From the NCBI GenBank assembly GCA_964554765.1, contig CAZKPS010000001.1, forward strand, positions 72,786 to 136,785: a stretch of 64,000 bases of DNA, in the 5' to 3' direction. A model generated the notes under the pieces. That model did no database searches and was not told where the DNA came from. It saw only the letters and a list, made by a program, of their open reading frames with translations. Origin of the DNA: an uncultured Candidatus Saccharibacteria bacterium. Lineage in GTDB: Bacteria > Patescibacteriota > Minisyncoccia > Phycocordibacterales > CAIRYW01. Positions 5,463 through 63,708 of this stretch are shown here, piece after piece. The stretch's first letter is position 1; every line of letters starts with the position of its first letter. The position numbers and the translations under genes were made by a program.

Positions 5463-5490
5463 TTGACAAAATAGAGTGATTTGCTACAAT
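5463..5490 (+). promoter_or_regulatory. Sigma-70-like promoter (TTGACA-16-TACAAT) for a leaderless TrmB-family gene
   Basis: The -10 element ends about 8 nt before the ATG at 5499. Confidence 0.35.
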
Positions 5491-6260
5491 TGGAGTATAT
5501 GAAGGAAAAACTCTTAAAGATAGGCCTCAACCCTACTGAAATAGACATCTACCTCACCCTCCTAGAGCATGGCAAACTTCTGCCTGCAAATATAAGTAAA
5601 TTAACAGGTATCAACCGAAGTACGGCATATGCAGCCTGCGCAGAATTGTTGAAGAAAAACATTATTACAGAAGATCTCTCCGGTAAAACCAAATACTTTG
5701 TAGCACTCCCTCCAGAAAACCTCAAAAATCAAGTAAACAAAAAACTCCGGGAAATCAAAATCGAGGAAAGCATTATTAACGAGCTTATTCCAGAACTCGA
5801 GTCACTCCCAAAGTCCGGTAATTATTCAATACCTAGGGTACAGGTAGTTAATAGTGATGATATAGAGGATTTTCTCTACAAAAACACACCAATATGGGAA
5901 AAGAGTATGCGAGATCTAAATGAGAAGACTTGGTGGGGTTTTCAAGATCATGCCTTTGTAGAAAGTGACAAATATCGAAAATGGATTCTCTGGTATTGGA
6001 ATCGATCATCTGAAGATATGGATTTAAAACTTTTTACAAATGAATCCAAGATTGAAGAAAGAATGAGAGAGAAGAATATAACGAGAAGAAAACTGAAACC
6101 GTGGACTGGAGATAATTTTAGCTCAACACAATGGATACTTGGTGAATATATAGTATCCATTATGACTCGAGGAAAGCTCCACTACCTCGTACAAATTCGA
6201 GACCGTGTACTCGCAGATAGTATGCGAAATATGACAAAAAATCTCTGGATTAAGGATTAA
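5481..6260 (+). CDS. TrmB-family transcriptional regulator (likely true start ATG 5499)
   Basis: The track ORF begins at a TTG. From the ATG it reads MKEKLLKIGLNPTEIDIYLTLLEHG...INRSTAY, a TrmB-type N-terminal wHTH followed by a C-terminal sensing-like domain. Confidence 0.75.
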   Translation: MLQLEYMKEKLLKIGLNPTEIDIYLTLLEHGKLLPANISKLTGINRSTAYAACAELLKKNIITEDLSGKTKYFVALPPENLKNQVNKKLREIKIEESIINELIPELESLPKSGNYSIPRVQVVNSDDIEDFLYKNTPIWEKSMRDLNEKTWWGFQDHAFVESDKYRKWILWYWNRSSEDMDLKLFTNESKIEERMREKNITRRKLKPWTGDNFSSTQWILGEYIVSIMTRGKLHYLVQIRDRVLADSMRNMTKNLWIKD

Positions 6261-15065: not shown

Positions 15066-15104
15066 AAAATACCCTGCAACTTTGTTGCAGGGTATTTTAT
15101 TTTT
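15066..15104. terminator. Terminator between the Cys-rich protein gene and pilB
   Basis: Hairpin accctgcaac-tttg-ttgcagggt with a T-run after it and an A-run before it. Confidence 0.6.
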
Positions 15105-17226
15105 AATTTGCTTCCAGTGTTCGAATATTTAACCGACAAGATCCAACCGATGTTTCATATGTTGTCTCATCTGTAATATCACCATCATGACACTTGAGCA
15201 TATATGTCATATCCTTCTTAACGTTCGGCATCGAATAAGTAGTTATACCTTCACCATCAGAAGTAAGATCAGCAGGATCAAATGTCCGTATAACACCATC
15301 CTGACTTGAAAGCGTACAGTGCGTTGTAACATCAAAAGCATCAAACACTTCAGAATCCTTACCGATATTTATTTTGCAAGTACCGTTTCGATCAACGATT
15401 GGTGTCACATCGAGTTTTCTATTTAGTGATACATTACCCTTAAATACACAGATATTTGAATTTGCACAATCATTGCCTAGATAACACTTATTCGAGCAAA
15501 TACCTTTATTTTCACAGTATGTGAGTCCGTTCGCACACATGAGATTTGCCTGACAACCCTGATTTAGACCACCTTCTGACCCAAGACAACTCCAGTTAAA
15601 TATTTTTCCATTCTTGGTTACCGTAGACTTAGTACCAGAAGAACAAGCTGCTGTACCAGTAATATCAGATACATAGCTTGCACCACTACTTGATATAGAC
15701 CCGCACACACCACTTACTGGATTGCATACCCCATTTTTACAAGGAAAACATTGACGATCTTGATTTATGTAGTAACCAGACGGAACTGGGATATTCCCTA
15801 GATTCACACACAAATGATTATTGTTACACTGATTGACATTTATCTGGTTTCCAGGATTATCAGGACCAGGACACACATCAACACATTCTGCTGGGTCGGT
15901 CTGTACTCCAGATTGCGGACACCAGTCTACAGCATCACAAAGTCCACTAGAACAGGTAGGCGTTGTTTCAGAACAGATTAACTGCTCTATGTACGAACTG
16001 AGAATATTGGATTCACTCTGAGTAAGAACAACTGTACATGCACCACCAATAAGTGCTCTGTCAAAGACGAAGGGATTGGTAATATCATTTGCAAACCTAT
16101 AACCATTTGGACAAGTCACATCAACCAAAAATGCTATGAGACAAGAATCGTTGTACTGGCAAACCGGCCGATTGTAGTGAGGCGTACAATTTATATTTTG
16201 ATTCCCTCCATTACAATCTGCTTCTGTTTCATAATTTGTTGCGTTCTCATCAGCACAATAATCGCGATCCGGATATCTACAGAGACTATCATTTCGACTA
16301 CAAGGTCGACGATCTTCAGGTATACTATTATTACAATCAGTTTGTGTTTCTGCGTTTAACGCAGGAGTTGTTGTGTCACCACAAAATTCTACAGGATCAT
16401 ATGTACAGTGAGCAGATGGATTTCCCGCGATACAATTCCTATCTGGATTGCTTGCCTGACAATCAGCTTGTGTTTCAAAGTTATTTGCTTCTGGGTCAGG
16501 GCAATAATATACCTTGCATCTTGCATCATCACTGTCTGATGTACAGTATTCACAAGTACCACTGTTGTTTTCAATTTTTTTAGGATCTGAGGTCTCATCT
16601 GGGCATTCGTCGTCATAATTAAGTGCATTGGTGTCTGCACAACAAAATTCTTCGCACCCCTCGTATATACATGCTGCATAAGCACCATAATTACACGCTT
16701 CTGCATCATTACAATACACAATACAAACGGGCGGATCATCATTATTGAAAATCTTCCCCTCTCCGCAGTTGTTACAGAGAGGTGGATTAATCGCACCATT
16801 ATTACAAGTACTAGGCACACATTCACAGCTTTCGCTATCACGCACATATCCTTGCTGTGTACAAGGTCCATAACACTGCCCATCCCCTTCGCACATGCTC
16901 TGCCCAGAAGAACACTCGTCACAATCAGGAGGATTATTTGCACCATTACTACATTCATCATTTACACATTCACAGCTTTCAGCATCTCTTGATTGTCCAA
17001 TCTCACACTGTGTATAACAACTTCCAAGACACTCATCCTCATTTGATCCACACACACAGCTGCAACTCGAATCAAGTTGCTTGCCTCCAGAACATTCAGA
17101 GACACATTGATCATTACATTCCACTTGTCCATTTGGGCAAGTCAAATCTGCAAATGTCTTAGTGTAGCCAACGAAAACACCTAGCACTAGCAGAGAAACA
17201 AGTAATGTAATTTTAATTTTATTCAT
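15103..17226 (-). CDS. Secreted, extremely cysteine-rich repeat protein (function unknown)
   Basis: 707 aa with a signal peptide (MNKIKITLLVSLLVLGVFVGYT) and well over 100 Cys. It has internal repeats (SCECV..C.NGA.NPP.C) and about four copies of an A-x-N-x-E-T-x-A-D-C motif. It abuts the upstream TPR gene (stop/start 3 nt apart). Confidence 0.6.
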   Translation of the reverse strand: MNKIKITLLVSLLVLGVFVGYTKTFADLTCPNGQVECNDQCVSECSGGKQLDSSCSCVCGSNEDECLGSCYTQCEIGQSRDAESCECVNDECSNGANNPPDCDECSSGQSMCEGDGQCYGPCTQQGYVRDSESCECVPSTCNNGAINPPLCNNCGEGKIFNNDDPPVCIVYCNDAEACNYGAYAACIYEGCEEFCCADTNALNYDDECPDETSDPKKIENNSGTCEYCTSDSDDARCKVYYCPDPEANNFETQADCQASNPDRNCIAGNPSAHCTYDPVEFCGDTTTPALNAETQTDCNNSIPEDRRPCSRNDSLCRYPDRDYCADENATNYETEADCNGGNQNINCTPHYNRPVCQYNDSCLIAFLVDVTCPNGYRFANDITNPFVFDRALIGGACTVVLTQSESNILSSYIEQLICSETTPTCSSGLCDAVDWCPQSGVQTDPAECVDVCPGPDNPGNQINVNQCNNNHLCVNLGNIPVPSGYYINQDRQCFPCKNGVCNPVSGVCGSISSSGASYVSDITGTAACSSGTKSTVTKNGKIFNWSCLGSEGGLNQGCQANLMCANGLTYCENKGICSNKCYLGNDCANSNICVFKGNVSLNRKLDVTPIVDRNGTCKINIGKDSEVFDAFDVTTHCTLSSQDGVIRTFDPADLTSDGEGITTYSMPNVKKDMTYMLKCHDGDITDETTYETSVGSCRLNIRTLEAN

Positions 17227-23861: not shown

Positions 23862-24593
23862 TTATTTTCTAGAATTTTGCCACAGGTATGCAAATATCTT
23901 TCGGAATGCATCAGAAATAATTTTGTTCTTAAGAATCATTCCCATCGGCTCCTTTTTATCAAAAGCCACAATTGCAAGCTTATCGTCAAAAATATTAATC
24001 TCAATCCCCAGATCCTTGAACACATCGGAGAATCTCATATCACGAAGAAGCTCTTTAGCTCGAGTTTTATCTCTCTTGCCATATTTATCCATCGGAAGCA
24101 AACTCTTGACCGATACCCCAGCTTTCACTCGATACGGAAAATAATCTTCATCAAAAAAATCATTCATAGTCTCATATGCTTTTTGATAGTCAGTGATAGC
24201 GAGGATATGCTTCTCATTATTCTCTCTCCAAGTCTCACCGTAGAGTTTCTTTACCGCCTCTTTCCCTTCAAAATACCGAATACCCGAATGTAGTACTGGA
24301 TACTTTTTCTTTTTGAACACCCCTCTAAGTTTTTCCGATTCTTCCTCGAGAGATTTTATCTTTCTTTTAGACCACACCTCAAACTCCTCCTCCGAAATAG
24401 ATTGAAAAAGTGTCGTATCATTTTTCTTGATCTGACTTACAAGCCCCTTCTCTTCGAGAAGAGTGAGCGTGTGATAAAGTGCTGTTCGATTGAGACTCGT
24501 GTCCTTGGCGATCTGGGATACGGGAGATGGTCCGAAACTTGCGAGAGCTTCAAACACCGCTCTCTCCTTTTCACTCATGAGTTCGTTATTCAT
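23862..24593 (-). CDS. TrmB-family transcriptional regulator
   Basis: N-terminal wHTH (VFEALASFGPSPVSQIAKDTSLNRTALYHTLTLLEEKGLV), C-terminal domain. Confidence 0.7.
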   Translation of the reverse strand: MNNELMSEKERAVFEALASFGPSPVSQIAKDTSLNRTALYHTLTLLEEKGLVSQIKKNDTTLFQSISEEEFEVWSKRKIKSLEEESEKLRGVFKKKKYPVLHSGIRYFEGKEAVKKLYGETWRENNEKHILAITDYQKAYETMNDFFDEDYFPYRVKAGVSVKSLLPMDKYGKRDKTRAKELLRDMRFSDVFKDLGIEINIFDDKLAIVAFDKKEPMGMILKNKIISDAFRKIFAYLWQNSRK

Positions 24594-29133: not shown

Positions 29134-29931
29134 TTATTTTTCCTCAGTTTTACCGTCCAACCTTTTCGCCTCTTTCCACGCTAGTTCAAAAAGTTTTTTG
29201 AGAGCATCAGCAATCTCTTCACTTTCTATAATAATACCAAGCTCCTCTCTCCAGGATGCAATCATCACTTTGTTATCATAAATTTCTATATCAGGAGAAA
29301 TGTCAAAAAGTTCTTTTGGTACAAGAGCGAGCTCTCGAGCCTCAAACGGATTCATCTTTTTTCGCTCAAGTGCCAACTCTGTTGCAGGAACAATACCCCG
29401 AACAAACAAACCCTTCGCCGCCCGTCTCCTGTAATAGTCAGGAAAATATCCTTTGAGAGTTTTGTGCATATCATCATAGGAAGCCATTGCCACAAAAGGT
29501 CCAGATGCAGTCAAGGTATCTTCATATACTTTTTTCATTCCCTCAATACCTTCATAAAATTTTACTTGTGGCCGAGTACCGACTTTATACATGGACTTAA
29601 GCTCGGGCAATAGTAATTGTGCATACCTATAGTCCTCTTCTTTTCGCTCAATATTGTGACGCAGAAATTTTAATATCTGTTCAGGATCCTCACATCGATA
29701 CTCTTGTTTTGGTTCTTTCCCAGAAATACTCACAAGACCCTTTTGTGCCAGGCTTGCCAAAATATCGTAGGCACCCGTTCTATTAATACCAGCCCTTTTT
29801 GCAATCTCACTTACTTTACCTTTTCCTATCCCTAAGAATGAAATGTAGAGCTCAGACTCTTTTTTGTTGAGACCCAGCTTTTGTAAAGCGTTTTGAAAAG
29901 TTCCACTCTGACCTTCTTCGTATTTTGTCAT
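29134..29931 (-). CDS. TrmB-family transcriptional regulator (close paralog of 62920..63708)
   Basis: wHTH (SEIAKRAGINRTGAYDILASLAQKGLVSISGKEPKQEYR). The C-terminal IYDNKVMIASWREELGIIIESEEIADALKKLFELAW is shared with the paralog. Confidence 0.75.
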   Translation of the reverse strand: MTKYEEGQSGTFQNALQKLGLNKKESELYISFLGIGKGKVSEIAKRAGINRTGAYDILASLAQKGLVSISGKEPKQEYRCEDPEQILKFLRHNIERKEEDYRYAQLLLPELKSMYKVGTRPQVKFYEGIEGMKKVYEDTLTASGPFVAMASYDDMHKTLKGYFPDYYRRRAAKGLFVRGIVPATELALERKKMNPFEARELALVPKELFDISPDIEIYDNKVMIASWREELGIIIESEEIADALKKLFELAWKEAKRLDGKTEEK

Positions 29932-31443: not shown

Positions 31444-32241
31444 TTATTCGTATTTCGTTCCTGTCCAACTCAATTCAAAAATCATCTTCATAAGTCCGTG
31501 AATTGTTGGATCTTCGATAATGACTCCTGTTAACTTTTCTTTACCGAGGTTTATGATCGAAACATTTTTTTCACCATAGATTGTAATCTCGGCCTTGTAG
31601 GGGAATTTCTCTGCCGGGATGAATCGTGCATTAGGCATCAATTCTTCTTTGAAATCACCGTACGATCTCTCAACAAAGGTCTTGTCTATGTTTGTATCTG
31701 GGAAAATAACTCTTGAACTAATTCCTTTCTGTTTCTTTGTCTTAATATAATTTCTAAAAAAGTCTCTCGGCACCTGTTCCTCCACCTCTTGAACATTCGC
31801 CCACGCGAGCATTTCATATGGCTTCGATACATTAATATGTGTTGCATAAATATCAAGCACACCCTCAATACCTTCATAATACGTAATCTTTGGTTTATCG
31901 GCCGCTCCCAATAACCCCTCGAGATCAGGAAGAATCCTCTGGACATTCTCAATCTCATCTTGGATGATAGACATTTTGGATTTGGCATACCGCACGAGCT
32001 TGGTTGGACTCTCGAGTTGATAGAATTGTTTATTCTTCTTTTCTATCTCATTCACTACCCCCTTTACTGACATTTGGGTGAGCAACATATAGACCGTACT
32101 TCGATTAAGTCCAGTGTATTCTGCAATCTTTGACGGATATGCTCCTCCGAGCTCAAGGAGTGCTACATATATTAAAGACTCTTTGTCAGAGAGACCTGAC
32201 TTTTGGAGCTTTTTGAGGAGATTTTCGTGTTTTATGCTCAT
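31444..32241 (-). CDS. TrmB-family transcriptional regulator
   Basis: wHTH (IYVALLELGGAYPSKIAEYTGLNRSTVYMLL) plus a C-terminal domain. Confidence 0.75.
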   Translation of the reverse strand: MSIKHENLLKKLQKSGLSDKESLIYVALLELGGAYPSKIAEYTGLNRSTVYMLLTQMSVKGVVNEIEKKNKQFYQLESPTKLVRYAKSKMSIIQDEIENVQRILPDLEGLLGAADKPKITYYEGIEGVLDIYATHINVSKPYEMLAWANVQEVEEQVPRDFFRNYIKTKKQKGISSRVIFPDTNIDKTFVERSYGDFKEELMPNARFIPAEKFPYKAEITIYGEKNVSIINLGKEKLTGVIIEDPTIHGLMKMIFELSWTGTKYE

Positions 32242-32363: not shown

Positions 32364-33962
32364 TTGACAATGTGTGATAATTCTTGCGGAAAGTATATTG
32401 AAATCAACAAACACACAATTATGAACAAAAGATTTGTACTTATTAACCCAGAAGCGATGGTTCTAGAAAACACGGGTGACGACCAAACCCAATATCGAGT
32501 ATGGCCGCATAATGGTCTGCTCTATGTAGGAACAGCTGCCGAAAAAGCCGGCTACTCTGTTGCCCTATGGGACGAACTTGTTCAAGGCAAGGTCTCGCTC
32601 GAAAACATCGTCGAACCTGGTGACATTGTCGGGTTTAGTCTTGTTATTACTGGTATTGAACGCGGAGTGTTGCTTGCCAAGGAAGCCAAGAAACTAGGAG
32701 CCAGGTATTGTATAGCCGGCAACGACTCTGCAATATTTAGATCTTCAAAAATTCTGGCTTTGGCTGGCAAGCCGATAGATGCCGTGTTCACGGGTGACAG
32801 TTTGAGAGCAATCACGTCATTTTTCAGTCAGATAGATTCAGTACCGATGAGTGATTTAAAAATCAGTGGAGTAGAAACGAATCCCAACCATACCAGCCGT
32901 TCAAATGTTCTGGAATCCCTCAAGTTAGAAGCCGATTCAAGAAGGGGTGGACAAAGAGATGATGGTGACGTATTCATCGTGCCTAATCTGAATCTTTTTG
33001 ATCAGGCCTATTGGAATACCGTGTGGAGGAACTACAACGAGAACTTTGGACACAAACACCCAAAAGGTAAACCTGTCCGAAACACTCTTGCACTCTTTTC
33101 ACACGGTTGCACCCGTCCAAGAGGTACGGAAGTGTGCAGCTACTGTACAATCGCGGAGGTCGCTAACATTCGTTTTCCAAGTGATGCACATGTCACAGAA
33201 TTGGCAGAGACATATGCTCGTTTTGGCATTAATACTGTCTTTAACGCTGCAGACTCTTCATTTGAGATGATTCCCGTCATCAACACACTGAAGAAGCATA
33301 ATATAAAGTGGGACGCGCTCACGATCTACGCTCGGTCCAGAGGTATCGCAATGGAGGGTAACCAGAAACTAATGGAAAAATGGTTGTCAGTGACAAGGGA
33401 TAGATTACTTCTTAATGTGGGCATGGATTCTGGGGATGATGATATTTTGAAGAAAGGAATTACTAAATCATCAGCAGGTAAAAACGATTCGAGGGTGGAG
33501 GAGAATAAGGAGGCAACAAGGAGGATAAAACAATTCGGTGCGCACTTACACTGTTCACTTATCTTTGGTAGTCCAGGGGAGACCTTGGCTTCGTGCCGTA
33601 GGTCGATGGAGTATCTTGAGTGGATGATTGATGTGTTGGGAGACCAACTCGATCAAGCTGAAGCAGATAGATACTGGCTTAACTTCGGATCTCCTGCAAG
33701 TCGAGTGTTCTTTGATTATGATTATGCAGTCTTGCTTGCCTCATATGCGGGTAAGACAATTAATCGCGATGAATGGCACAGACATTTTGTGTTACATGCT
33801 GATGAACTTGTGGTTCCACCAGAAGTTCAAAAGTCTTGGTATAGATTTTTCACCCGAATCGATATAGAAACGGCTGACGAATTCAATGCCATGGTAGCAC
33901 ATAGAATGCTCAGGCATACAGGGAGCATACGCAGTCGCGCGTTTATGCCCCTTGCGACGTAG
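32364..33962 (+). CDS. B12-binding-domain-like / radical SAM superfamily protein with a non-canonical CX8CX2C motif (start probably ATG 32421)
   Basis: Rossmann-like N-domain, then CTRPRGTEVCSYC, then radical-SAM-type motifs LNVGMDSGDDDIL (GxESG-like) and IFGSPGET. G+C-rich relative to the flanks. Confidence 0.55.
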   Translation: MTMCDNSCGKYIEINKHTIMNKRFVLINPEAMVLENTGDDQTQYRVWPHNGLLYVGTAAEKAGYSVALWDELVQGKVSLENIVEPGDIVGFSLVITGIERGVLLAKEAKKLGARYCIAGNDSAIFRSSKILALAGKPIDAVFTGDSLRAITSFFSQIDSVPMSDLKISGVETNPNHTSRSNVLESLKLEADSRRGGQRDDGDVFIVPNLNLFDQAYWNTVWRNYNENFGHKHPKGKPVRNTLALFSHGCTRPRGTEVCSYCTIAEVANIRFPSDAHVTELAETYARFGINTVFNAADSSFEMIPVINTLKKHNIKWDALTIYARSRGIAMEGNQKLMEKWLSVTRDRLLLNVGMDSGDDDILKKGITKSSAGKNDSRVEENKEATRRIKQFGAHLHCSLIFGSPGETLASCRRSMEYLEWMIDVLGDQLDQAEADRYWLNFGSPASRVFFDYDYAVLLASYAGKTINRDEWHRHFVLHADELVVPPEVQKSWYRFFTRIDIETADEFNAMVAHRMLRHTGSIRSRAFMPLAT

Positions 33963-37419: not shown

Positions 37420-37440
37420 TTAACTACTCACACTTATACA

Positions 37441-37476
37441 AAAAGCCTCCCTTTCGGGAGGCTTTTTGTTTTTTGA
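37441..37476 (+). terminator. Terminator after hup
   Basis: Hairpin aagcctccc-tttc-gggaggctt followed by TTTGTTTTTTG. Confidence 0.7.
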
Positions 37477-37680: not shown

Positions 37681-37903
37681 TGATGTTGGGTTGAGAGATT
37701 ACAAAACTCTCAAGATTGAATTTAATTGTTTAACGTAAACTCATTACGATGCAATACGGAGAATGATAGATAAACAGATGATTGATGACAGAATTTCTGA
37801 TGGGATAAGTGAATCGGTCACAAATAATTTATTCACCTTCGTTCATAAATTTTTGCGACCCCGGCTCGCTTGTTTCCAAAGCTTTGGAAACACAGCTCCG
37901 CCC

Positions 37904-37952
37904 TTCGATTCCCTTACGTGAGTCGAACTATCGACTCACTGTCCCGCACATT
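37904..37952 (+). repeat. Inverted (mirror) copy of the 3' end of tRNA-Gly(UCC), interrupted by a 25-nt hairpin insertion
   Basis: ttcgattccctta + [cgtgagtcgaactatcgactcactg] + tcccgcacatt is the reverse complement of the tRNA T-loop, T-stem 3' and acceptor 3' (plus 4 nt of trailer), apart from the insertion. The insertion sits exactly at the T-stem/acceptor junction. Confidence 0.65.
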
Positions 37953-37973
37953 ATCGTCGCAGGCTCCTCAATG

Positions 37974-38044
37974 TGCGGGATAAGGGAATCGAACCCTTGT
38001 CTACTGCTTGGAAGGCAGTCATTCTACCACTAAACCAATCCCGC
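37974..38044 (-). tRNA. tRNA-Gly (anticodon UCC), CCA not encoded
   Basis: Cloverleaf with acceptor gcgggat/atcccgc, anticodon arm actgc-CTTCCAA-gcagt and T-arm aaggg-ttcgatt-ccctt. Coordinates are anchored to track ORF 37809..38033. Confidence 0.75.
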
Positions 38045-38256
38045 GTTATATACTGACCACTATAGCAGATTTTACAGCTCAATTCAACTTGATAATAATT
38101 CACCTTTCAGATTCTCTGAAAGAATGAATTTGAGCTATAATAGTATTCAACATAGTCCGCAACAAAAGCGAGTCACCCATAAATTTATTGAACTATCATC
38201 ATGGACAAAATATCCATAACATCATTATCAACAGTCACTAATCTTTTCTAGTAGAG

Positions 38257-45046: not shown

Positions 45047-45781
45047 CTACTCACTTTTCTCCCAGAGCATCTTCCAAACCGATCTGAGACTCTCGGCAAT
45101 TGATTGATTTTTGATGATGATTCCCATCTCGTCTTTAGTTGAAAGCATCGCCACTTTATCGTCGAAGATCATAATTTCATTATTTATCCTGTGGTTTTCT
45201 GGTATCAGACGCACCTCTCTCAAAACTTCCTCCCCTTCTCTCTTATCCTGTTCCCCCACTTCACCACCTGGAGCGAATCCTCGAACCCTAATCCCCTTCT
45301 TAACCCTCTGCCTTACATAATTATCTACATACTCCCCACCAAAATACTCCTTCACCTCTTTGGAATTTGTAAAAGTCAAAATCTCTCCCTTTGATAATAA
45401 ACTTTCTTCATAGATTTGCTTAAGACCCTCCCTTGTACTGACAGTTGTGATTCTTGGCCTTTTCTCATTATTTTTATTTTTGACCAAGTCAACTAGACTC
45501 TCCTCGAGTATCCCGAGCCCCTCTTTATGTTTCTTTATCAGAATCTGAGGATTGAGCGCCCCAAAGTACATAACACCCTTCATCTTAAACCCTGACACAA
45601 TACCTCTACTCGAAAGGCGCTTCAGGACCTCAAAATTAGTAATCCGATTTAGCTTTGATTCTCTAGCAATCTGACTATTTGTTGCCGAACCGAGCCCAAG
45701 GAGTGCTAAATAAACCGCCGCCTCGTTCTCCGAGAATCCTAATCCACCAAGTTCTTTCCTGATATCAATCTGCATATTCAA
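45047..45781 (-). CDS. TrmB-family transcriptional regulator
   Basis: wHTH (AAVYLALLGLGSATNSQIARESKLNRITNFEVL). The C-terminal MGIIIKNQSIAESLRSVWKMLWE is shared with the family. Confidence 0.7.
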   Translation of the reverse strand: MNMQIDIRKELGGLGFSENEAAVYLALLGLGSATNSQIARESKLNRITNFEVLKRLSSRGIVSGFKMKGVMYFGALNPQILIKKHKEGLGILEESLVDLVKNKNNEKRPRITTVSTREGLKQIYEESLLSKGEILTFTNSKEVKEYFGGEYVDNYVRQRVKKGIRVRGFAPGGEVGEQDKREGEEVLREVRLIPENHRINNEIMIFDDKVAMLSTKDEMGIIIKNQSIAESLRSVWKMLWEKSE

Positions 45782-47175: not shown

Positions 47176-47685
47176 GTGAAATATTATACCTCCAAACTAG
47201 CTAGCATGTAATGTTGATAAGTCTAAGATCTATCCTTTGTGCCTGAGCATAGCTCCTGTTCCACATGAAATGTGCAAGAGAATAAACCACAGTACCCACA
47301 TGGCACGGAGCCGTATATTCCAGGGTTTTCATGTGTAACGAAATTTAGAGTGTTTCTTATGAAACGTTTTGTGGGTAAAACCCATAAAGTACACTAAATT
47401 CTGATTATATCCATACAAAATAAGGGTATTCTAGAAAAGTCCGATAAAATAGTTGTCTTTTATAGATTTGTCTTATACACATATCCACCGAGTTATCCAC
47501 AGTTTGTTGATAAATATGGGTGATTTCTGGGGAGAAAGAGAGGAAAAGGACAGGACGGATTAGGTCCTGTAGGTCTCAACAACTAGGGGAGAAAATCGGT
47601 CACAAGTTGTCCGTTTGCCGTCGCGAACAGACACTCGCAACTCCGGCTCGTCCGTTTTGTGTGCTCACAAAACATGACTGCGTCC

Positions 47686-47790
47686 TTCGATTCTCCCACG
47701 CAAAGTGCGTTTGGCATTTTGCTTACTCGCACAAAAATAGCAAAAACCTGGGTCAAATTGACCTAGGTTTTTGCTATTTTTGTGCGAGTA
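47686..47790 (+). repeat. Mirror copy of the tRNA-Gly(GCC) 3' end, with a 26-nt insertion, plus a ~31-bp palindrome that includes the tRNA acceptor 3' strand
   Basis: ttcgattctccc + [acgcaaagtgcgtttggcattttgct] + tactcgcac, followed by the palindrome tactcgcacaaaaatagcaaaaacctgggtc / gacctaggtttttgctatttttgtgcgagta. The right arm of the palindrome is the tRNA 3' end. Confidence 0.65.
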
Positions 47791-47853
47791 GGGAGAATCG
47801 AACTCCCGTCTCATCCTTGGCAAGGACGTGTTCTACCACTAAACCATACCCGC
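47783..47853 (-). tRNA. tRNA-Gly (anticodon GCC), CCA not encoded
   Basis: Acceptor gcgggta/tactcgc (one G-U pair), anticodon arm cgtcc-TTGCCAA-ggatg and T-arm gggag-ttcgatt-ctccc. Coordinates are anchored to track ORF 47520..47867. Confidence 0.75.
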
Positions 47854-48195
47854 TTTATTTGAAGTAGTATATAGGAAAATGTGAAAAAGGGAAGGGGGAA
47901 GTGGAAGAAAACGCTGGGTAGGAATCTCGAACCTTACAGGTTCAGTACACCTTTTGGTGATTTTGTTTCCTTAATCAATCACAAAATCAACTCAAAAGGT
48001 TCTCGAATCCAGCAGCGGAAGGAACTCGGTCGTTACACGACCAGTATCCTGATTGGAAATTTTATTTCGCAAGCTTATAAAATTTGCTCAATCGGGCTTC
48101 GAGTCCTGCACCGGCAGGAACTCTCGGCTTACAGCCGCAGTACAGGTTTCCCATTTTCTCGGATGAGTACATCCTCAAAAATATGGGAGAACCTT

Positions 48196-48288
48196 TTCGA
48201 GTCCTGCACGCAAGCGCCCCGCGCTTGCTCGGGTGCACAAAATAGAAAAACCGCCCCATAAAAGGCGGTTTTCTATTTTGTGCACCCG
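48196..48288 (+). repeat. Mirror copy of the tRNA-Arg 3' end, with a 19-nt hairpin insertion, plus a ~24-bp palindrome that includes the tRNA acceptor 3' strand
   Basis: ttcgagtcctgcac + [gcaagcgccccgcgcttgc] + tcgggtgca, followed by the palindrome gggtgcacaaaatagaaaaaccgcc / ggcggttttctattttgtgcaccc. The right arm of the palindrome is the tRNA 3' end. Confidence 0.65.
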
Positions 48289-48352
48289 GCAGGACTCGAA
48301 CCTACAAAAACGGTTCCGAAGACCGTTGTGATATCCATTTCACCACGGGTGC
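48281..48352 (-). tRNA. tRNA-Arg (anticodon UCG), CCA not encoded
   Basis: Acceptor gcacccg/cgggtgc, D-arm gtga-aatggata-tcac, anticodon arm acggt-CTTCGGA-accgt and T-arm gtagg-ttcgagt-cctgc. Coordinates are anchored to track ORF 47881..48261. Confidence 0.75.
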
Positions 48353-50807: not shown

Positions 50808-51647
50808 CTATATTCCAACTTCTAGCATTACTGGGCAATGATCAGATCCCATCACTTCATTTAAAATTTCAGCTTTCTTAATTTTTTTCTCAAGTCTTTT
50901 TGATGCAAAGAAATAATCTATTCTCCATCCGACATTTCTCGCTCTCGCTCCGCCCCAAGCTGTCCACCAAGTATAATTACCTCCTTCTTTATTAAATAAT
51001 CTGAATGTATCTACAAAGCCGGCATCTAGAATATTATCCACCCCTTCTCGTTCTTCCGCAGTAAATCCGTGTTCACCTTCGTTTTCTTTTGGACGAGCGA
51101 GGTCTTGTACTGTGTGAGCAACGTTCAGATCACCGCAGAAAATAACAGGTTTTTTGACCTCAAGTTCTTTACAGTATTCAAGAAACGCCGGATCCCATTT
51201 TTTGTAGCGAAGCTCGAGGCGACTCAAATTATCTTTGGAATTAGGAGTATAAACATTTACTATATAGAATTCATCGAATTCTGCTGTAATCACGCGCCCC
51301 TCAGTATTAGGATTACCATATGAATCAGTGTCGAATTTGTATTTATGAGCGATTTCTTTTGGAAGTCCAAGGATTATTGAAATAGGCTTGATTTTAGTAA
51401 ATATTGCCACACCACTGTAGCCTTTTTTCTCTGCTGAATTCCAATATTCTTCATATTCTGAAAGATCTATCTCTGCCTGACCTTGCTGTGCTTTAGTCTC
51501 TTGAAGGCATATGATATCTGGTTTGTATTTAGCAACAGATGGAAGAAAAAGTCCTTTATTGTGGACTGCGCGAATACCGTTTACATTCCATGAGATGATT
51601 AGCATACGAATAGTATATAGTATGTGGTATATGGTATACAAACACAA
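50808..51647 (-). CDS. xth: Exodeoxyribonuclease III (likely start MLIISWNVNG at ~51605)
   Basis: WNVNGIRA, QETK and the C-terminal SDHCPV motif. Confidence 0.85.
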   Translation of the reverse strand: MCLYTIYHILYTIRMLIISWNVNGIRAVHNKGLFLPSVAKYKPDIICLQETKAQQGQAEIDLSEYEEYWNSAEKKGYSGVAIFTKIKPISIILGLPKEIAHKYKFDTDSYGNPNTEGRVITAEFDEFYIVNVYTPNSKDNLSRLELRYKKWDPAFLEYCKELEVKKPVIFCGDLNVAHTVQDLARPKENEGEHGFTAEEREGVDNILDAGFVDTFRLFNKEGGNYTWWTAWGGARARNVGWRIDYFFASKRLEKKIKKAEILNEVMGSDHCPVMLEVGI

Positions 51648-52177: not shown

Positions 52178-52220
52178 TACTACATACTACATACTACATA
52201 CTACTTACTACTTCTTACTA
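52178..52220. repeat. Heptamer microsatellite, (ATACTAC)x4 followed by degenerate copies, immediately 3' of the xer stop
   Basis: Tandem atactac atactac atactac atactac ttactac ttcttac. Coordinates may be off by 1 nt. Confidence 0.55.
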
Positions 52221-53125
52221 TGAAATTTTTTATGCACTTCTCGAAGATGTGAGTCAGTGACGTGGGTATAGATTTGAGTAGTTGAGATATTTGCGTGTCC
52301 CAAAAGCATCTGTACAGAACGTAAGTCAGCACCATTGCGGAGCAAATCAGTCGCAAAACAGTGTCGTATCACGTGGGGAGTTACTTTTTTGGATACCCCT
52401 GCTTTGATTGCATAATATCTGATTAGTCTTTGAATTGAGCGGGGAGTCAGGGCTCCGTCTTCTTTTTTTGCTCTTTCATTGCCCACTTTTACAAAGAGAG
52501 CACCGTCGAGGTCTTTACGGAGATTCAAATATGTTTTCACCATTGATTTTGCTTCATCGGAAAGGAAAACAACACGCACCTTACCACCTTTACCTCTGAT
52601 AGAGAGCTCATCCTGACGAAGATCAATATCCCGATCAAGTGAACAAAGCTCGGACACTCGAAGTCCAGTAGAGAAGAGGAGTTCCAAAATAGCCTTACCA
52701 CGAGCCTTTTTTTCTTGATTCTCCTCATTATTTGGCGCATCAAAGATTCTCCGGAGTTCATCTGCAGAGATGAGGTCGAGTGATCTCTCGCCGGTTTTCG
52801 CAAGCTCTATATAGTCTGCCGGTAGGGTAGTAATCCCTCGTTTTGCTATGTATTTGAGAAATGCGCGGAGAGCAATGAGATAATAGTTTTGAGTTCTTTT
52901 CTTGAGAGTTTCATTGAATTTACGATTGTTGCCTGTTACCTGTCGGTTAAGCCAGAGACGATATTCACGCATTATTTCTGGAGTAATATCTTTTGGATCG
53001 GTCTTTTTAAAGAATTCGAGAAACCGAGTAAGGTAATGATCATAATTCTCAACAGTCTTGAGGCTGCGACCTTTTTCGATTTCGATGTGTTCAAGGAATT
53101 GTCTTTTGAGGGTGAGTAGATCCAT
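52208..53125 (-). CDS. Tyrosine recombinase, XerC/XerD family
   Basis: 305 aa with an N-terminal SAM-like domain and the catalytic motifs RHCFAT and LGHANISTTQIYTHV. Confidence 0.85.
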   Translation of the reverse strand: MDLLTLKRQFLEHIEIEKGRSLKTVENYDHYLTRFLEFFKKTDPKDITPEIMREYRLWLNRQVTGNNRKFNETLKKRTQNYYLIALRAFLKYIAKRGITTLPADYIELAKTGERSLDLISADELRRIFDAPNNEENQEKKARGKAILELLFSTGLRVSELCSLDRDIDLRQDELSIRGKGGKVRVVFLSDEAKSMVKTYLNLRKDLDGALFVKVGNERAKKEDGALTPRSIQRLIRYYAIKAGVSKKVTPHVIRHCFATDLLRNGADLRSVQMLLGHANISTTQIYTHVTDSHLREVHKKFHSKK

Positions 53126-53222: not shown

Positions 53223-55481
53223 ATGCCAGATAAAATTCCACCACCAGATGAAATAAATGCAGGATCACCAGAATCTCAACCTGGGGTAGATGTTGAGACC
53301 ATTCTAGAGGAAAAAATTGCCCCTATTAGAAGTGCAATTGCTAACGGAAGACCTATTGATGTTGAAGATTACAGAGCATTTTTTGCTGCTATACCTGACA
53401 AAGGCACCGTAAGCGATGATGATTATGAAATTGCAAGGGAATACGCAGAAAATCTCTTGAAGCTTTTTCGTAGTGAGAATGTCGAGATTAAGATATCGGA
53501 TACTCAAACTAAGAAATTTAATGAGCTTGAAAAGGAGCGTAAGGAACGAGAGGAAAAGCAGAAGGAAGATCTTGAAAATTTTCTAGAGCTTAAGAGAGAA
53601 ATAACTGGTTATATTCATAACAACCAATTTATTCCTTTTGCTCTCGCAGTAAAAGCAGAATCATTACTAGAAGATATTCCAGAGGAGGAAAGGGATGAAT
53701 TCGATATATTGATGAATCAAGACAAGGTAAGAATCATTCAAAAAAGTAATAGTCGACAAATCACTTGGAATGACTTCTTGATTAGAAATTCGCCAGAGAT
53801 GATTGAGATGAAAGAACTCATAACAAAACTTCAAGAGATAGTTAATGATAAAAATCCAAATCCAATTCCCGTTGAATATCTGGAAAGTCTTCATGAATTT
53901 TTAAAGACAGATGATGATCGTGTTGTATCTCTGCTTTTGCGCAACCAGATCCTTTCTGGTATGAAAAATGCAACAAAGAAAAAACCAATCTTGGTCACCT
54001 TAGCTGATGGAAATACAGTAGAAGTAAAATCTGATGTATTTGACTCGGCTGATAAATTACCAAAGCCAGAAACTCCTGCCCCAGCAAAAATCGAGCCCAC
54101 TCCAGCTGCTACACCTGAACCAACCCCTGCTACTGCAAAAGTCACAGCCTCTTCAACAGCATCTGTTGCAGAAGCACCAGTCAAACCAGAAGCTACACCA
54201 GCAGTAGAGCCTCCTCTCAAGATAGACCCAGAAACATATAAAAGACAGCTTGCACTAGAACTTGAGTCAATTGAGATGCATACAATTGAGCACATCCTCG
54301 AGGAAATAGTAGTAGAGTTCAGTAAACTAAGTAAAAAAGATAAAGAAGTATTTAAAGAGCTTCTAGAAAAAATATCTCCTTCTTCTCACGATAATCACGG
54401 AGACCACCACGAAGAAGAGCACGATACTCATCATAACGAACATGATAGTGGACATACGCACAGTACAGAACACGAGAAATCTCCTGCAGAACTCGCAGAG
54501 ATAGTAAGTGGATTCCTAAAAAAACTTGAGTCCAGTGATGAGCTTGAGATGAGTGATGCAACACGTCAATCACTCAAAGGTATGTTCTACAATCTCAGAG
54601 TAGAGGTAAGAAAAGCAGAAATAAAAGCATTAGATGAAGAAAAACTATTCAAAGATGACAAAGAGAAACTGAAAATATTTGAAGCAATTTCAAAATCAAA
54701 AAGGGAAAGTGAAGCGGCATATAATGATGAAATAAATATAATAGAGTCAAGACTTGATGAAGTGGAAGGTGACGAAAACATTCAGGATAGCTACCGCATT
54801 ATTTTACTTAGAGAGAAATTCATAAAAATCTTCGAGTACAACAAGAAGATGCGTGACTTCCTATCTAGAGAAATTGAGGAGCTGCGAAAAGCTCTCGAGG
54901 AGAAGAAAGCTGAACTCGAAGAAAAAATCAGAATCCGAGATGCGGCAGAAGAAGAGATGAGAGAAGCTGTCCGAAGCGGTGATAAGGAAAGAATCAAATC
55001 TACTACAGAAGTCTACAAAAAAGCACAGAAAGATGTTGATGAATTGGAAATAATTGTTCATGGATTGCAACTCAAAGTAAATGGTAAAGTCGCAGTACTT
55101 GAATCAGTAACACACAAGATTGAGGAAATAGAAGGAAAAAAGGCGGATATAGAAAAAAGTGACGACTTAGCAGAGGTTAGAGAAATAATTGAGGAAGTAG
55201 AAAAACTTTCAAAAGAAATCGACCACGAGTTAAAACCAGGTTTGCACGGAGATCATGGACACGAGCACGGACATCACCATGATGAGCCAAAGAAATCTCT
55301 ATTTAAATCGACAGTGACGTGGAGTCTCGTAGGTGGAGGGTTATTAATAGGGTTGTTCAATATTTTTGCAACAAATCTCTACAATACACTTCGAGGAGTA
55401 AAGGCAAGCGGAGGAGGAGGTGGTGGTCATGGTGGAGGACATGGAGGTGGCCACGGGCACGGTGGAGGCGGACACCATTAA
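53223..55481 (+). CDS. His-rich coiled-coil protein with a C-terminal TM anchor and a Gly/His tail (function unknown)
   Basis: 752 aa with long Glu/Lys coiled-coil segments, a Pro/Ala/Thr linker and three His clusters (HDNHGDHHEEEHDTHHNEHDSGHTH; HGDHGHEHGHHHDE; GGGHGGGHGGGHGHGGGGHH). There is a single TM helix near the C-terminus. Confidence 0.6.
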   Translation: MPDKIPPPDEINAGSPESQPGVDVETILEEKIAPIRSAIANGRPIDVEDYRAFFAAIPDKGTVSDDDYEIAREYAENLLKLFRSENVEIKISDTQTKKFNELEKERKEREEKQKEDLENFLELKREITGYIHNNQFIPFALAVKAESLLEDIPEEERDEFDILMNQDKVRIIQKSNSRQITWNDFLIRNSPEMIEMKELITKLQEIVNDKNPNPIPVEYLESLHEFLKTDDDRVVSLLLRNQILSGMKNATKKKPILVTLADGNTVEVKSDVFDSADKLPKPETPAPAKIEPTPAATPEPTPATAKVTASSTASVAEAPVKPEATPAVEPPLKIDPETYKRQLALELESIEMHTIEHILEEIVVEFSKLSKKDKEVFKELLEKISPSSHDNHGDHHEEEHDTHHNEHDSGHTHSTEHEKSPAELAEIVSGFLKKLESSDELEMSDATRQSLKGMFYNLRVEVRKAEIKALDEEKLFKDDKEKLKIFEAISKSKRESEAAYNDEINIIESRLDEVEGDENIQDSYRIILLREKFIKIFEYNKKMRDFLSREIEELRKALEEKKAELEEKIRIRDAAEEEMREAVRSGDKERIKSTTEVYKKAQKDVDELEIIVHGLQLKVNGKVAVLESVTHKIEEIEGKKADIEKSDDLAEVREIIEEVEKLSKEIDHELKPGLHGDHGHEHGHHHDEPKKSLFKSTVTWSLVGGGLLIGLFNIFATNLYNTLRGVKASGGGGGGHGGGHGGGHGHGGGGHH

Positions 55482-55997: not shown

Positions 55998-56618
55998 TTG
56001 GCTTTTTATATGTCAGTAATTAAACACAAAGAACAGAGAGTAGGAGTCTTTATAGATACTCAAAACCTTTATCACACAGCCAAAAACCTTTATCACGCAA
56101 GGGTTAATTTTGGCGCAGTACTCAAAGACGCGGTCGCAGGACGAAATCTCATCCGTGCTATTGCGTATGTAATCACTACAGAAGCAGGGGATGAACGAGC
56201 GTTTTTCGAAGCTCTCACAAAAATGGGTATCGAATCAAAAACCAAAGATCTTCAGATATTCGCAGGGGGAAGTAAAAAAGCAGACTGGGATGTAGGACTC
56301 GCAGTAGACGCGATCAAAATCGCGCCGAAGCTTGATGCAATCATTATTGTTTCAGGAGACGGAGACTTTATCCCACTTGTAGAATATCTACGTACAAATA
56401 TGGGGTGCCAAGTAGAGGCAGCATCATTCGGCAAATCTACATCAAGTAAACTCAAGGAAGCAGTAGATGATTTTATTGATCTTGATGAGGATCCAAGTAA
56501 ATACCTTCTAGGACAAACTCCACAAAAGAACAGTAGACGGCCGAAGGGAAGAGATAGTGTGCGAAACAACAACAGTGATCTGGCAGAGATGCTAAGAGAG
56601 GCGGGGGAAGAGTTATAA
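55998..56618 (+). CDS. NYN-domain (LabA-like) protein, probable ribonuclease
   Basis: VGVFIDTQNLYH ... KADWDVGLAVDAIKIA ... IIIVSGDGDFIPLVEYLR. Confidence 0.75.
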   Translation: MAFYMSVIKHKEQRVGVFIDTQNLYHTAKNLYHARVNFGAVLKDAVAGRNLIRAIAYVITTEAGDERAFFEALTKMGIESKTKDLQIFAGGSKKADWDVGLAVDAIKIAPKLDAIIIVSGDGDFIPLVEYLRTNMGCQVEAASFGKSTSSKLKEAVDDFIDLDEDPSKYLLGQTPQKNSRRPKGRDSVRNNNSDLAEMLREAGEEL

Positions 56619-60719: not shown

Positions 60720-61505
60720 ATGGAAAATGTATTAAAACAATTGGGTTTAAATGAAAAGGAGATTTTAGTCTATAAATCACTCTTGGAAAGAGGTGCTTCG
60801 ACATCATCTTCACTTGCAAATGTTATTGACTTGCCACGACAGACTATCTACTCAATCCTTCAAAAACTATGTGATGAAGGAGTAATTGAGAAAGGCCCGT
60901 GGAAAGGGGCACACAAATTCATTGCCGACCCAACCAATCTTTCATCAATAGTGAGATTTAGGCAGAAAAAACTTACCCAAATAGGAAATACAATTGAGGA
61001 ATTGATGCCAGAACTTCTCACAATAACAAAACTCAGAGCAAACCGAAAACCTTCGGTTCAGTATTATGATGGGGTATTTGGGTTGAAGCGTCTTTTTGAT
61101 GAGATCATTGAACAATACAAAAGAAAAGAAGATACTATGTTTCGAGGATTCGGAATTAATTATTTTGAAAATACAGACATACAAGAAATTTTAAATGATT
61201 TTGTTAGAGAGAGATATAAATATGGTATAAAAACTCACTTACTTATTGGTAAAGGGGGGAATGATTTTGGCATTACGATAGATGGATCAACAACTTTAGG
61301 AAGAGAAGTCCGTAGTATAAATATGGAAGCACAAAATGCTGGCATCTACCTAGTAGGAGATCGTATTTATTTATTTTCTTACGAGGATGATGTGGGAATT
61401 ATGATTGAACAGAAACTTATTGCACAATTATTAAAAAATATTTTCGATTTGGAGTGGGATAAGGCAAAAGAGCTTGATAAAGAAATAAGAAGATTAGAGA
61501 AGTAA
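60720..61505 (+). CDS. TrmB-family transcriptional regulator
   Basis: wHTH (ILVYKSLLERGASTSSSLANVIDLPRQTIYSILQKL). The C-terminal ...WDKAKELDKEIRRLEK is identical to 62920..63708. Confidence 0.7.
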   Translation: MENVLKQLGLNEKEILVYKSLLERGASTSSSLANVIDLPRQTIYSILQKLCDEGVIEKGPWKGAHKFIADPTNLSSIVRFRQKKLTQIGNTIEELMPELLTITKLRANRKPSVQYYDGVFGLKRLFDEIIEQYKRKEDTMFRGFGINYFENTDIQEILNDFVRERYKYGIKTHLLIGKGGNDFGITIDGSTTLGREVRSINMEAQNAGIYLVGDRIYLFSYEDDVGIMIEQKLIAQLLKNIFDLEWDKAKELDKEIRRLEK

Positions 61506-62919: not shown

Positions 62920-63708
62920 ATGGAAAACAAAGGGAATTTCGTTGGTGCCCTCATCAATATGGGTCTCCCAGAAAAGGAGGCTGCAGTTTATGTATCTCTC
63001 CTCGGGCTGGGACTTGCAACAGTAACCGAAATTGCCAATAAATCAGGAATCAATCGAACAACTGTCTACGATATCCTTTCTTCACTATCCCAGAAAGGAC
63101 TTGTGAGCATTTCGGGTAAAGAACCAAAGCAAGAATACAGATCTGAAAATCCTGATAAGCTACTAACATATCTCAAAAACGAACTTGAGCGAAAGGCTCA
63201 AAGTGTGAGGTATGCAGAGCTCATGCTTCCGGAACTTAAATCAATACACAAAATAGGTGAAAGACCTCGAATCAAATTTTATGAAGGTGAGGAAGGTTTG
63301 CGAGAAGTATACGAAGACACTCTCACATCAGAAGAAACTATTTTGGCATATGCCGCAGTGGATGATGTGAACAAAGGGATTGCAAATTATTTCCCCAAAT
63401 ACTATAAAAGACGCGCTGCAAAAAACATTCCTATCCGTGCTATATTTCCCGATACTCCCGTGGCAAGAGAACGATCGGACCTTGATAAAGAGGAGAGGCG
63501 GGAAAGTCTTTTGGTGCCATTTGAAAAATACAGCTTTACTCCCGAAATAAATATCTATGACAACAAAGTTATGATCGCATCGTGGAGAGAAAAGCTTGGA
63601 ATAATTATTGAAAGCGCCGAGATTGCAGATGCCATGAAAAAAATATTTGAACTCTCATGGGATAAGGCAAAAGAGCTTGATAAAGAAATAAGAAGATTAG
63701 AGAAGTAA
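62920..63708 (+). CDS. TrmB-family transcriptional regulator (close paralog of 29134..29931)
   Basis: wHTH (AAVYVSLLGLGLATVTEIANKSGINRTTVYDILSSLSQKGLVSISGKEPKQEYR). The C-terminus is identical to 60720..61505. Confidence 0.75.
   Translation: MENKGNFVGALINMGLPEKEAAVYVSLLGLGLATVTEIANKSGINRTTVYDILSSLSQKGLVSISGKEPKQEYRSENPDKLLTYLKNELERKAQSVRYAELMLPELKSIHKIGERPRIKFYEGEEGLREVYEDTLTSEETILAYAAVDDVNKGIANYFPKYYKRRAAKNIPIRAIFPDTPVARERSDLDKEERRESLLVPFEKYSFTPEINIYDNKVMIASWREKLGIIIESAEIADAMKKIFELSWDKAKELDKEIRRLEK

Follow-up and report, generated by a model that had tools for sequence, protein, structure and literature searches.

Organisation of the tRNA-Gly(UCC) locus

The DNA analysed here, a stretch of 64,000 nucleotides (nt) of contig CAZKPS010000001.1 from an uncultured Candidatus Saccharibacteria bacterium (hereafter the window), carries on its minus strand a tRNA-Gly(UCC) gene (37974-38044; ARAGORN, and Rfam at 74.2 bits; CCA not encoded) that is followed by a short structured element containing an inverted copy of the gene's own 3' end. 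All parts of the element lie on the minus strand and are given here in the order in which they follow the tRNA. The last 18 nt of the gene itself (C56-A73; 37974-37991) form the first copy of a direct repeat (DR1). They are followed by a linker of 21 nt (37953-37973), which makes the loop of a long fold-back and has no terminator in this copy, by the 11-nt anti-acceptor arm AATGTGCGGGA (37942-37952), which matches tRNA nt 67-73 and four trailer nucleotides exactly in reverse complement, by the perfect 25-nt hairpin P2 (CAGTGAGTCGATAGTTCGACTCACG; 37917-37941), which splits the mirror copy, holds a conserved position and shows compensatory changes across the family described below, and by the 13-nt anti-T arm TAAGGGAATCGAA (37904-37916), likewise an exact match, in reverse complement, to nt 54-66. 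Next comes the core, termed type 1 (37817-37903; 96 bits and E = 3e-31 with the covariance model R1), a three-way junction of the form GGGCGGAGC-P3-GCGAGCC-GG-GGUCGC-P4-UGUGAC supported by covariation. The core is followed by DR2 (CGATTCaCTTATCCCatCA; 37798-37816), a degenerate direct copy of tRNA nt 56-73 which starts at T-loop position C56 and pairs with the anti-T arm to form helix P1b. Judging from the copies behind topoisomerase I genes (topA), treated below, DR2 would be what the gene originally had as its 3' end, now displaced.

A preliminary description of this locus had reported an exact mirror of the tRNA 3' end, 24 nt long with 4 nt of trailer, about 20 nt downstream of the gene and interrupted by a 25-nt hairpin precisely at the T-stem/acceptor junction. 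The mirror (11 + 13 nt, 37904-37952), its distance from the gene (the 21-nt linker) and its interruption by the hairpin all stand; the split itself falls between nt 66 and 67, one nucleotide inside the acceptor strand. When the downstream 120 nt were shuffled, the summed exact complement never exceeded 18 nt, and none of 2000 shuffles reached the observed 24. The anticipated fold-back of about 24 base pairs (bp) with a three-way junction is likewise what thermodynamic prediction returns: in the minimum free energy (MFE) fold of the tRNA and its downstream DNA, the tRNA 3' half is paired with the mirror copy and the hairpin forms the third arm (z = -8.3). The core after the mirror copy, the direct repeat after the core and the distinct tandem core type found behind tRNA-Arg were not part of that description.

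As for transcription, a promoter-like site was found only upstream of the tRNA, and no terminator lies between the tRNA and the core, so that this copy must be co-transcribed with the tRNA. Further along, a perfect 14-bp palindromic terminator with A and T tracts on either side (37438-37469) follows the gene for HU; it probably also ends the convergent transcript of tRNA-Gly(UCC) and the element.

Other tRNA loci of the window

The four tRNA genes of the window all lack an encoded CCA. They score 74.2, 68.8, 64.4 and 63.4 bits with RF00005 and are also called by ARAGORN, which rules out a mis-called tRNA boundary as the source of the complementarity. The recurrence already reported at two other tRNAs was recovered at tRNA-Gly(GCC) and tRNA-Arg(UCG), with exact complements of 17 + 12 nt each, and the argument made there against chance holds: none of the three loci was matched in 2000 shuffles each. 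The same complement test found no mirror copy downstream of tRNA-Pro(UGG).

The tRNA-Gly(GCC) gene (47783-47853, minus strand; ARAGORN, Rfam) is the target of a second type-1 element (47586-47782, minus strand; R1 84 bits, E = 4e-27). Its palindromic linker (47741-47782), in which a weak terminator-like hairpin lies, is followed by an arm against acceptor and trailer (47724-47740), by P2 (47698-47723), by the anti-T arm (47686-47697), by the core (47599-47685) and by DR2 (47586-47598), which has decayed. Common to both Gly loci after the mirror copy are GAAGGRCGSAG, a hairpin, CGAGCCGGRGTYGC, a second hairpin and TTGTGAC, and then the degenerate direct copy of the tRNA 3' end.

Behind tRNA-Arg(UCG) (48281-48352, minus strand; ARAGORN, Rfam) lies an array of three tandem units of another type, termed type 2 (47912-48280, minus strand). 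It starts with a terminator palindrome (about 48238-48280), an 8-nt anti-acceptor arm (48230-48237), P2 (48209-48229) and a 13-nt anti-T arm (48196-48208), with further anti-T arms at 48098-48110 and 48001-48014. Within each unit, a long hairpin is followed by RUACUG, by a short stem that carries a UGUAA loop and then by part of the T-loop and T-stem in direct copy (48111-48123, 48015-48027 and 47912-47928). R1 does not detect the array; the same core type occurs in relatives (L152, L195, L159 and L164), and in L164 it sits behind a P2 hairpin sequence also used by type-1 elements. The type-1 and type-2 cores are unrelated, and the architecture is common to both. A terminator directly after the tRNA, defined as a G+C-rich hairpin with a U run, is present at Arg, weak at Gly(GCC) and absent at Gly(UCC); across the family, it is not a universal feature.

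Size, distribution and fold of the family

A signature pattern, GAGCCGGRGTYGC-N25-45-TGTGACCRA, was searched for in the genome collection and gave at least 119 loci; the locus counts of the family rest on the matches listed, and the total may be higher. Most of these loci have the full architecture seen in the window, and the carriers number more than a hundred genomes of uncultivated bacteria. Almost all belong to Patescibacteria (Paceibacterota, Saccharibacteria and others) or Elusimicrobia, and a few of the listed ones are labelled Bdellovibrionales, Armatimonadia, Phycisphaeraceae or Cytophagales. Three matches (L001, L012 and L017) were set aside as unrelated. In L001 and L017 (Actinomycetota metagenome-assembled genome), the pattern is matched by 53-nt tandem repeats (GAGCCGGAGTTGCGTAGCAACGACGGTCGGAGCGACCGGTGTGACCGAGCGCA) which resemble the P4 part alone and may be relatives of the family or a chance match. 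The covariance model R1, with 108 positions, detected 130 copies in 100 of the listed loci (688 kb), with up to six copies in 8 kb, and exactly two in the window, those scoring 96 and 84 bits.

The core (about 108 nt) is a three-way junction of helices P1b, P3 and P4, with about 24 invariant positions. In P1b, the anti-T arm pairs with the first part of the downstream repeat, P3 is closed by invariant GGC/GCC, and the base of P4, GGUCGCG/UGUGACC, is invariant with two fixed G.U pairs, its last base pair being C56 of the repeat. Across 79 sequences, 90.8% of cells are paired vs. 70.9% in shuffles, the covariation score is 0.50 vs. 0.15 in shuffles and at most 0.13 with slid partners, and 21 of 32 pairs, including seven of the eight of P1b, show changes on both sides. 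P2 covaries too, and its distance from the core is constant (about 10-11 bp). The loops of P2, P3 and P4 differ (CUGC, AGCA and GACG); concerning a kissing interaction between the P2 (CUNC) and P3 (AGNA) loops, covariation was no higher than in permutations. At the junction (alignment A3, columns 8-12 vs. 126-130), the arm form AAUCG pairs canonically with C56-G57-A58-U59, while an alternative arm, AUGAG or ACGAG, in about 15 copies, would give C=G, G.A, A.G and U.U, a tandem sheared-pair motif.

At the gathering threshold, Rfam 15 gave no match for the core anywhere in the window. With the limit relaxed to E <= 10, three window/locus regions and two model copies returned scattered noise only, the models for ribozymes, introns, tmRNA, RtT and IS605/HEARO RNAs included. 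The pattern had no match in 2.9 million viral contigs, which speaks against a phage- or plasmid-borne element. Literature searches found no description of the element; the closest paper deals with group I introns in the anticodon loops of Patescibacteria tRNAs (PMC13011429). The element type thus seems not to have been described before, in line with the preliminary description, whose author recognised no known element.

Targets and direct repeats

A tRNA gene on the same strand lies at most 450 nt upstream in 81 of the 126 pattern instances, and at least 17 amino-acid specificities occur among the matches listed. Other targets are tmRNA genes (L016, L037, L060 and L071), SmpB being the commonest neighbouring gene with 6 of 150 open reading frames (ORFs), and the 3' end of topA, with nine copies among the matches listed. 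The topA site, GGTA followed by CGAAAACC, resembles a T-arm; the copies themselves are found in the 3' untranslated region (UTR), ahead of the native terminator of topA.

The downstream repeat always starts with C-R-A, and the R of the pattern covaries with the T-loop (TTCGA or TTCAA). It reaches the discriminator and often extends 5-19 nt past it; in topA, it covers about 60-90 nt, up to the stop codon. Repeat length is variable (18-80 nt) and the two copies are 130-373 nt apart, so that the element has no cargo. The 150 flanking ORFs are housekeeping genes; integrases, transposases and reverse transcriptases are not enriched among them. As in an integrase island, the direct repeat covers the target gene from the T-loop up to its 3' end and the replacement end is apparently element-borne; no integrase gene lies inside the element.

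Evidence for insertion

Tandem copies are common (L009, L029, L033, L097, L116 and L059) and form arrays of up to three to six units. In L059 (3031-3480 and 6270-6600), the arrays stand behind tRNA-Arg genes with a period of about 130 nt, each unit consisting of a terminator-like hairpin and a core. Their closing helix pairs the U-tract of a hairpin with the A-tract that precedes the following one, instead of using tRNA sequence, and the family is therefore not strictly tied to T-loops.

A metagenome scan for loci with the adjacent gene for CCA-adding enzyme provided 80 syntenic loci from related genomes. The orthologous spacer between tRNA-Arg(tcg) and tRNA-Gly(gcc) is 43-85 nt long (empty) in eight loci and 185-402 nt long (filled) in six. 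The type-1 core is carried by 10 of 52 tRNA-Arg(tcg), 2 of 42 tRNA-Gly(gcc) and 1 of 25 tRNA-Pro(tgg) orthologues; with the element absent from most orthologous tRNAs of related genomes, the fold-back is not a required processing signal. At orthologous tRNA-Lys loci, L087 has an extra mini-element of about 85 nt and a third repeat copy, both missing from L042 and L118. This third mini-core (GGAATCGAAGGGCGCGAG...GAGGAAG) has its own repeat copy, which starts at A58.

Cores that are 90-94% identical, variable stems included, were found at different targets (Gly/Cys/Gln, Arg/Lys and tmRNA/topA). The arms of such near-identical cores fit the local target down to a single G/A difference, which follows a C/T difference in the tRNA. 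Taken together, the data show the structure, the conservation and the insertion character of the element. The preliminary description had named three possibilities: a signal for processing or termination, a regulatory fold-back, and a DNA-level event using tRNA 3' ends. The last one is supported by the repeats, the tandem copies, the empty and filled sites, the tmRNA and topA targets and the replacement gene end that seems to be element-borne; nothing points to an action of the fold-back in tRNA processing.

Origin of the repeat copies and behaviour of the mirror arm

The topA copies allow the two repeats to be compared as coding sequence. They differ at 35, 25 and 95 first, second and third codon positions, respectively, and the downstream copy mostly still encodes KTIPERCSNK.C..H. 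This third-position bias and the retained coding indicate that the two copies diverged as working genes in different lineages and not by local duplication; the third-position differences, together with codon choice, rule out a local target-site duplication at topA. Compared across hosts, the upstream, in-frame copies are more similar to each other (0.74) than the downstream ones (0.62). A conserved arginine is encoded by AGA or AGG in the upstream copies and by CGN in the downstream copies, and the hosts' own topA genes use CGN for arginine (AGR in 0 of 8 cases in L041, 0 of 9 in L047, 2 of 7 in L062 and 1 of 8 in L113). This suggests that the element brings in a new end for the gene and leaves the native one, displaced, as the downstream copy. 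At the tRNA loci, the downstream repeats have decayed by mismatches and indels, which agrees with such a displacement.

The mirror arm is matched, in its genomic context, to the upstream repeat copy and not to the downstream one. Its complementarity in topA takes in the two bases to the left of the repeat, with which it covaries (TA-TA in L106, CA-TG in L047, L090 and L113); at tRNAs, T54-T55 and the trailer are covered. The arm is exact over at least 10 nt in 12 of 26 loci with a decayed downstream repeat. At the Gly loci of the window, the arms are perfect though both downstream repeats, and in part the Gly(GCC) core, have decayed. In the downstream repeat, the first 8 or so nucleotides are preferentially retained; these close P1b when the element folds alone. 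A comparison of arm decay and repeat decay by gapped alignment was uninformative, with shuffled controls scoring equally high.

Two other origins of these sequences were considered and rejected. The mirror arm is not a direct copy of the tRNA 5' strands, as a tandem tRNA duplication would give: the T-stem 5' strand of tRNA-Arg reads GTAGG, the arm has GCAGG, which complements the 3' strand exactly, and the arm also spans the T-loop and the trailer. Nor was the downstream repeat templated from the mirror arm, for the repeat of L024 holds 10 trailer nucleotides without a complement in the arm.

Interpretation

We give about even chances to the reading that the element is a miniature, protein-less integrative element of about 150-220 nt (typically near 180), whose folded single strand mimics its target. 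Its integrated form, 5' to 3' along the tRNA strand, would consist of a replacement for the 3' end of the target from T-loop C56 onwards, now serving as the functional tRNA end; the linker, often an intrinsic-terminator-like hairpin; the reverse complement of the replacement end, split by P2; and the three-way-junction core, with its last helix ending in ...UGUGAC. The displaced native 3' end would come directly after the core and then decay. Since the rest of the gene comes with the element, insertion would spare an essential single-copy tRNA.

The single-stranded state may be DNA during replication or uptake, or a transcript, in which the mirror arm would pair with the target-identical segment. 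Arm, element-borne copy and linker would then form one long hairpin, with a duplex of target sequence stacked on the invariant P4a (GGUCGCG/UGUGACC) and a putative exchange point N55/C56 between the two. A trans-acting recombinase or nuclease of the host or of a helper, not encoded by the element, would exchange strands with a tRNA, a tmRNA or a T-loop-like C-R-A site. This geometry would resemble that of attachment sites folded from a single strand (integron attC, CTX phage attP); a strand-specific fold and, beside the junction, two invariant G.T/G.U pairs were observed. Template switching at quasi-palindromes is a plausible helper for re-matching the arms. About half of the tRNA-linked copies seem, by eye, to have a terminator-like hairpin upstream of the core, which is neutral with regard to a role at the DNA level.

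Several points weigh against this reading. No enzyme was found for the element, nor was a free or circular form seen. The left arm of the target (..GGTT) is unlike the invariant left arm of the element (..GTGAC), and a simple recombinase binding both should need similarity. The folded strand may be RNA or single-stranded DNA, the call of the strand coming from two invariant G.U/G.T pairs; among the variable pairs, there are 51 G.U and 44 A.C, and the excess of G.U over A.C was dropped as evidence for RNA, being absent once the two invariant pairs are set aside. Re-matching of the arms when a core moves to a new tRNA is left without an explanation, and at least two unrelated core types with one architecture are awkward for a single dedicated enzyme. 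Finally, the element-borne gene end is evidenced at the topA loci, largely by one codon, and is extrapolated to the tRNAs.

The proposed insertion may also be viewed more boldly, as the work of a new class of self-guided, gene-less elements in which a folded strand of RNA or single-stranded DNA, carrying a target mimic and its complement, programmes a host enzyme or its own catalytic core to insert at T-loops, the arms being rewritten for each target; this we regard as conceivable but doubtful. A route through RNA appears unlikely. In this view, the tRNA promoter would also drive transcription of the selfish element, and a unit-length RNA, released by cleavage at the two equivalent N/C-R-A sites through a three-way-junction ribozyme or through RNase P or RNase Z acting on a tRNA-like helix, would then be copied back at the T-loop, with repeat and mirror arm as homology or guide, as in target-primed reverse transcription. 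The necessary co-transcription of the Gly(UCC) copy fits such a route, as do the invariant unpaired nucleotides and invariant G.U pairs, typical of functional RNAs, the position of the topA copies in the 3' UTR before the native terminator, and the retained first 8 or so nucleotides of the downstream repeat, expected if these close an RNA fold or prime copying. However, no known ribozyme or intron model in Rfam 15 matches, no reverse transcriptase is linked to the element among the 150 neighbouring ORFs, many copies have a terminator-like hairpin between tRNA and core, and the mirror arm complements the genomic trailer instead of CCA, hence offers no primer-binding site for a mature tRNA. It also counts against this route that no group II introns in Patescibacteria are reported by the group I intron study (PMC13011429).

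A cis-acting RNA of the host, in which the fold-back sequesters the tRNA 3' half or makes a terminator or processing site and so controls the maturation, amount or quality of CCA-less pre-tRNAs, as the preliminary description had first suggested, seems to us quite improbable. It would suit the MFE fold, which pairs the tRNA 3' half with the mirror copy, the often terminator-like linkers, the perfect complementarity kept by the arm, and the tRNAs of the window, which do not encode CCA and have the gene for CCA-adding enzyme adjacent. Yet the element is missing at most orthologous tRNAs of relatives and at tRNA-Pro of the window, it occurs at the 3' end of a protein-coding gene (topA) and in tandem arrays of up to three to six units, and a processing model has no place for the direct repeat or for the codon evidence from topA. 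More improbable still is a functionless by-product, where replication template switching at terminator palindromes makes the mirror and the direct copies are decaying local duplications. Such an origin would explain why the complementarity usually belongs to a single long palindrome, with the linker hairpin at its centre and the trailer included, why it extends 2 nt past the repeat into the flank, and why it is perfect in the Gly(GCC) copy despite the onset of core decay; it does not account for a core of 108 nt in which about 24 positions are invariant and covariation is strong across many phyla, for the fixed spacing of one helical turn between P2 and the core, or for the third-codon-position bias between topA copies. 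Within the model of a miniature integrative element, template switching could be the process by which the arms stay matched.

Gene content of the window

The window is a Patescibacteria-like chromosome segment, with genes for RNase Y, HU, NusA, trigger factor, type IV pilus proteins, PNPase, a Xer-like recombinase and CCA-adding enzyme, and no gene of the window obviously drives the element. Not more than 8 kb from the tRNA-Arg/Gly cluster lie genes for an endonuclease/exonuclease/phosphatase-family protein (50808-51647), a Xer-like tyrosine recombinase (52208-53125) and a NYN-domain nuclease (55998-56618). None of the three was found linked to elements in other genomes; the Xer-like tyrosine recombinase is a candidate for the element's enzyme.

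Seven to eight TrmB-type paralogues of about 240-265 amino acids, with an N-terminal helix-turn-helix, occur within the 64 kb (5481-6260, 23862-24593, 29134-29931, 31444-32241, 45047-45781, 60720-61505 and 62920-63708), an unusual density for one regulator family. Four large ORFs of 532-752 amino acids (8562-10442, 15103-17226, 32364-33962 and 53223-55481) had no Pfam match at E <= 1e-5. As for the mechanically called ORFs of 50-126 amino acids which overlap the tRNAs and elements (37809-38033, 47881-48261 and 47520-47867 on the plus strand, 37951-38103 on the minus strand), they are almost certainly spurious, with a risk of being taken for genes in annotation.

Implications

If the proposed reading holds, these would be the smallest integrative elements yet seen: gene-less units of about 180 nt that repair the gene they split and have colonised tRNA, tmRNA and topA genes of the candidate phyla radiation and of Elusimicrobia. 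They would show how little site-specific insertion needs, and would point to a trans-acting enzyme or a catalytic RNA. Should the self-guided reading be true, they would amount to a natural, minimal, programmable insertion system, possibly with a new ribozyme class, and their split, target-matched arms beside an invariant helix are a natural template for programmable targeting. At a practical level, the elements make pseudo-tRNA fragments, long palindromes and spurious ORFs, by which the annotation and assembly of carrier genomes are misled, and the 108-position model could enter RNA family libraries.

Comparison with known systems

Several described classes were tried and discarded. A miniature inverted-repeat transposable element does not fit, the ends C56... 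and ...TGTGAC not being inverted repeats and the direct repeat being long and variable (18-80 nt). IS200/IS605-type elements and REPINs do not fit by structure, because P2, P3 and P4 differ in sequence and loops and a long repeat is present. A TnpB/IscB omega RNA was considered for the non-tRNA copies, which follow an ORF ending in ..SLMMEGTKTIPERC; this ORF is topoisomerase I, and no TnpB occurs among the neighbours. A retroelement primer-binding site is contradicted by a complement that runs into the genomic trailer (CATT; CAAAAATAG...), not CCA. Hammerhead, K-turn and H/ACA-pocket readings of the junction misfit the motifs by inspection, and Rfam was negative.

One parallel is with tyrosine-integrase elements that insert in the T-loop of tRNA and tmRNA genes. 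In these too, a direct repeat extends from the T-loop as far as the gene's 3' end, the functional end comes from the element while the native one is displaced, tmRNA genes and protein-gene 3' ends serve as further targets, and tandem insertions occur. The present element differs in measuring 150-220 nt instead of kilobases, in having neither an integrase nor any other gene, and in possessing, at the junction side, a conserved, covarying three-way junction, as well as an inverted copy of the attachment segment, the latter not known from classical attP sites.

Integron attC sites and the attP(+) of CTX phage, used with XerCD, share the folding of one strand, with covarying stems and few fixed positions, the imitation of a double-stranded target by that folded strand, and integration that gives arrays. 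Here, in contrast, the target is a tRNA T-loop and not attI or dif, a three-way junction with a split arm replaces the single bulged hairpin, there is no R/L box consensus, and IntI or Xer would be putative partners at most. REPINs, IS200/IS605-derived elements, Rickettsia palindromic elements and Correia and ERIC elements are known to be short, non-coding, multi-copy and structured, to lie near terminators and gene ends, and to be mobilised in trans; these have fixed ends and similar end hairpins, are devoid of target-copied arms and of a long target repeat, and are not tied to T-loops, whereas P2 and P4 of the present element are dissimilar.

The tyrT repeats of Escherichia coli, with the rtT RNA, are tandem units after a tRNA gene, each with a direct copy of the 3'-terminal 19 or so nucleotides; the present element has no Rfam RtT match. 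No mirror copy is known from that system, which is known from enterobacteria and from one locus only. Lastly, two-arm guides (H/ACA RNAs and three-quarter external guide sequences), the 5' ribozyme of R2 and the pairing of exon-binding with intron-binding sites in group II introns have in common with the element a bipartite target complement split by a hairpin, a pairing that spans the insertion or cleavage point, and co-transcription with the host RNA gene. Unlike in these systems, no target nucleotide is left unpaired here and there is no ACA or RCCA and no detectable intron or ribozyme core, while the complement covers the precursor trailer and a direct repeat is present.

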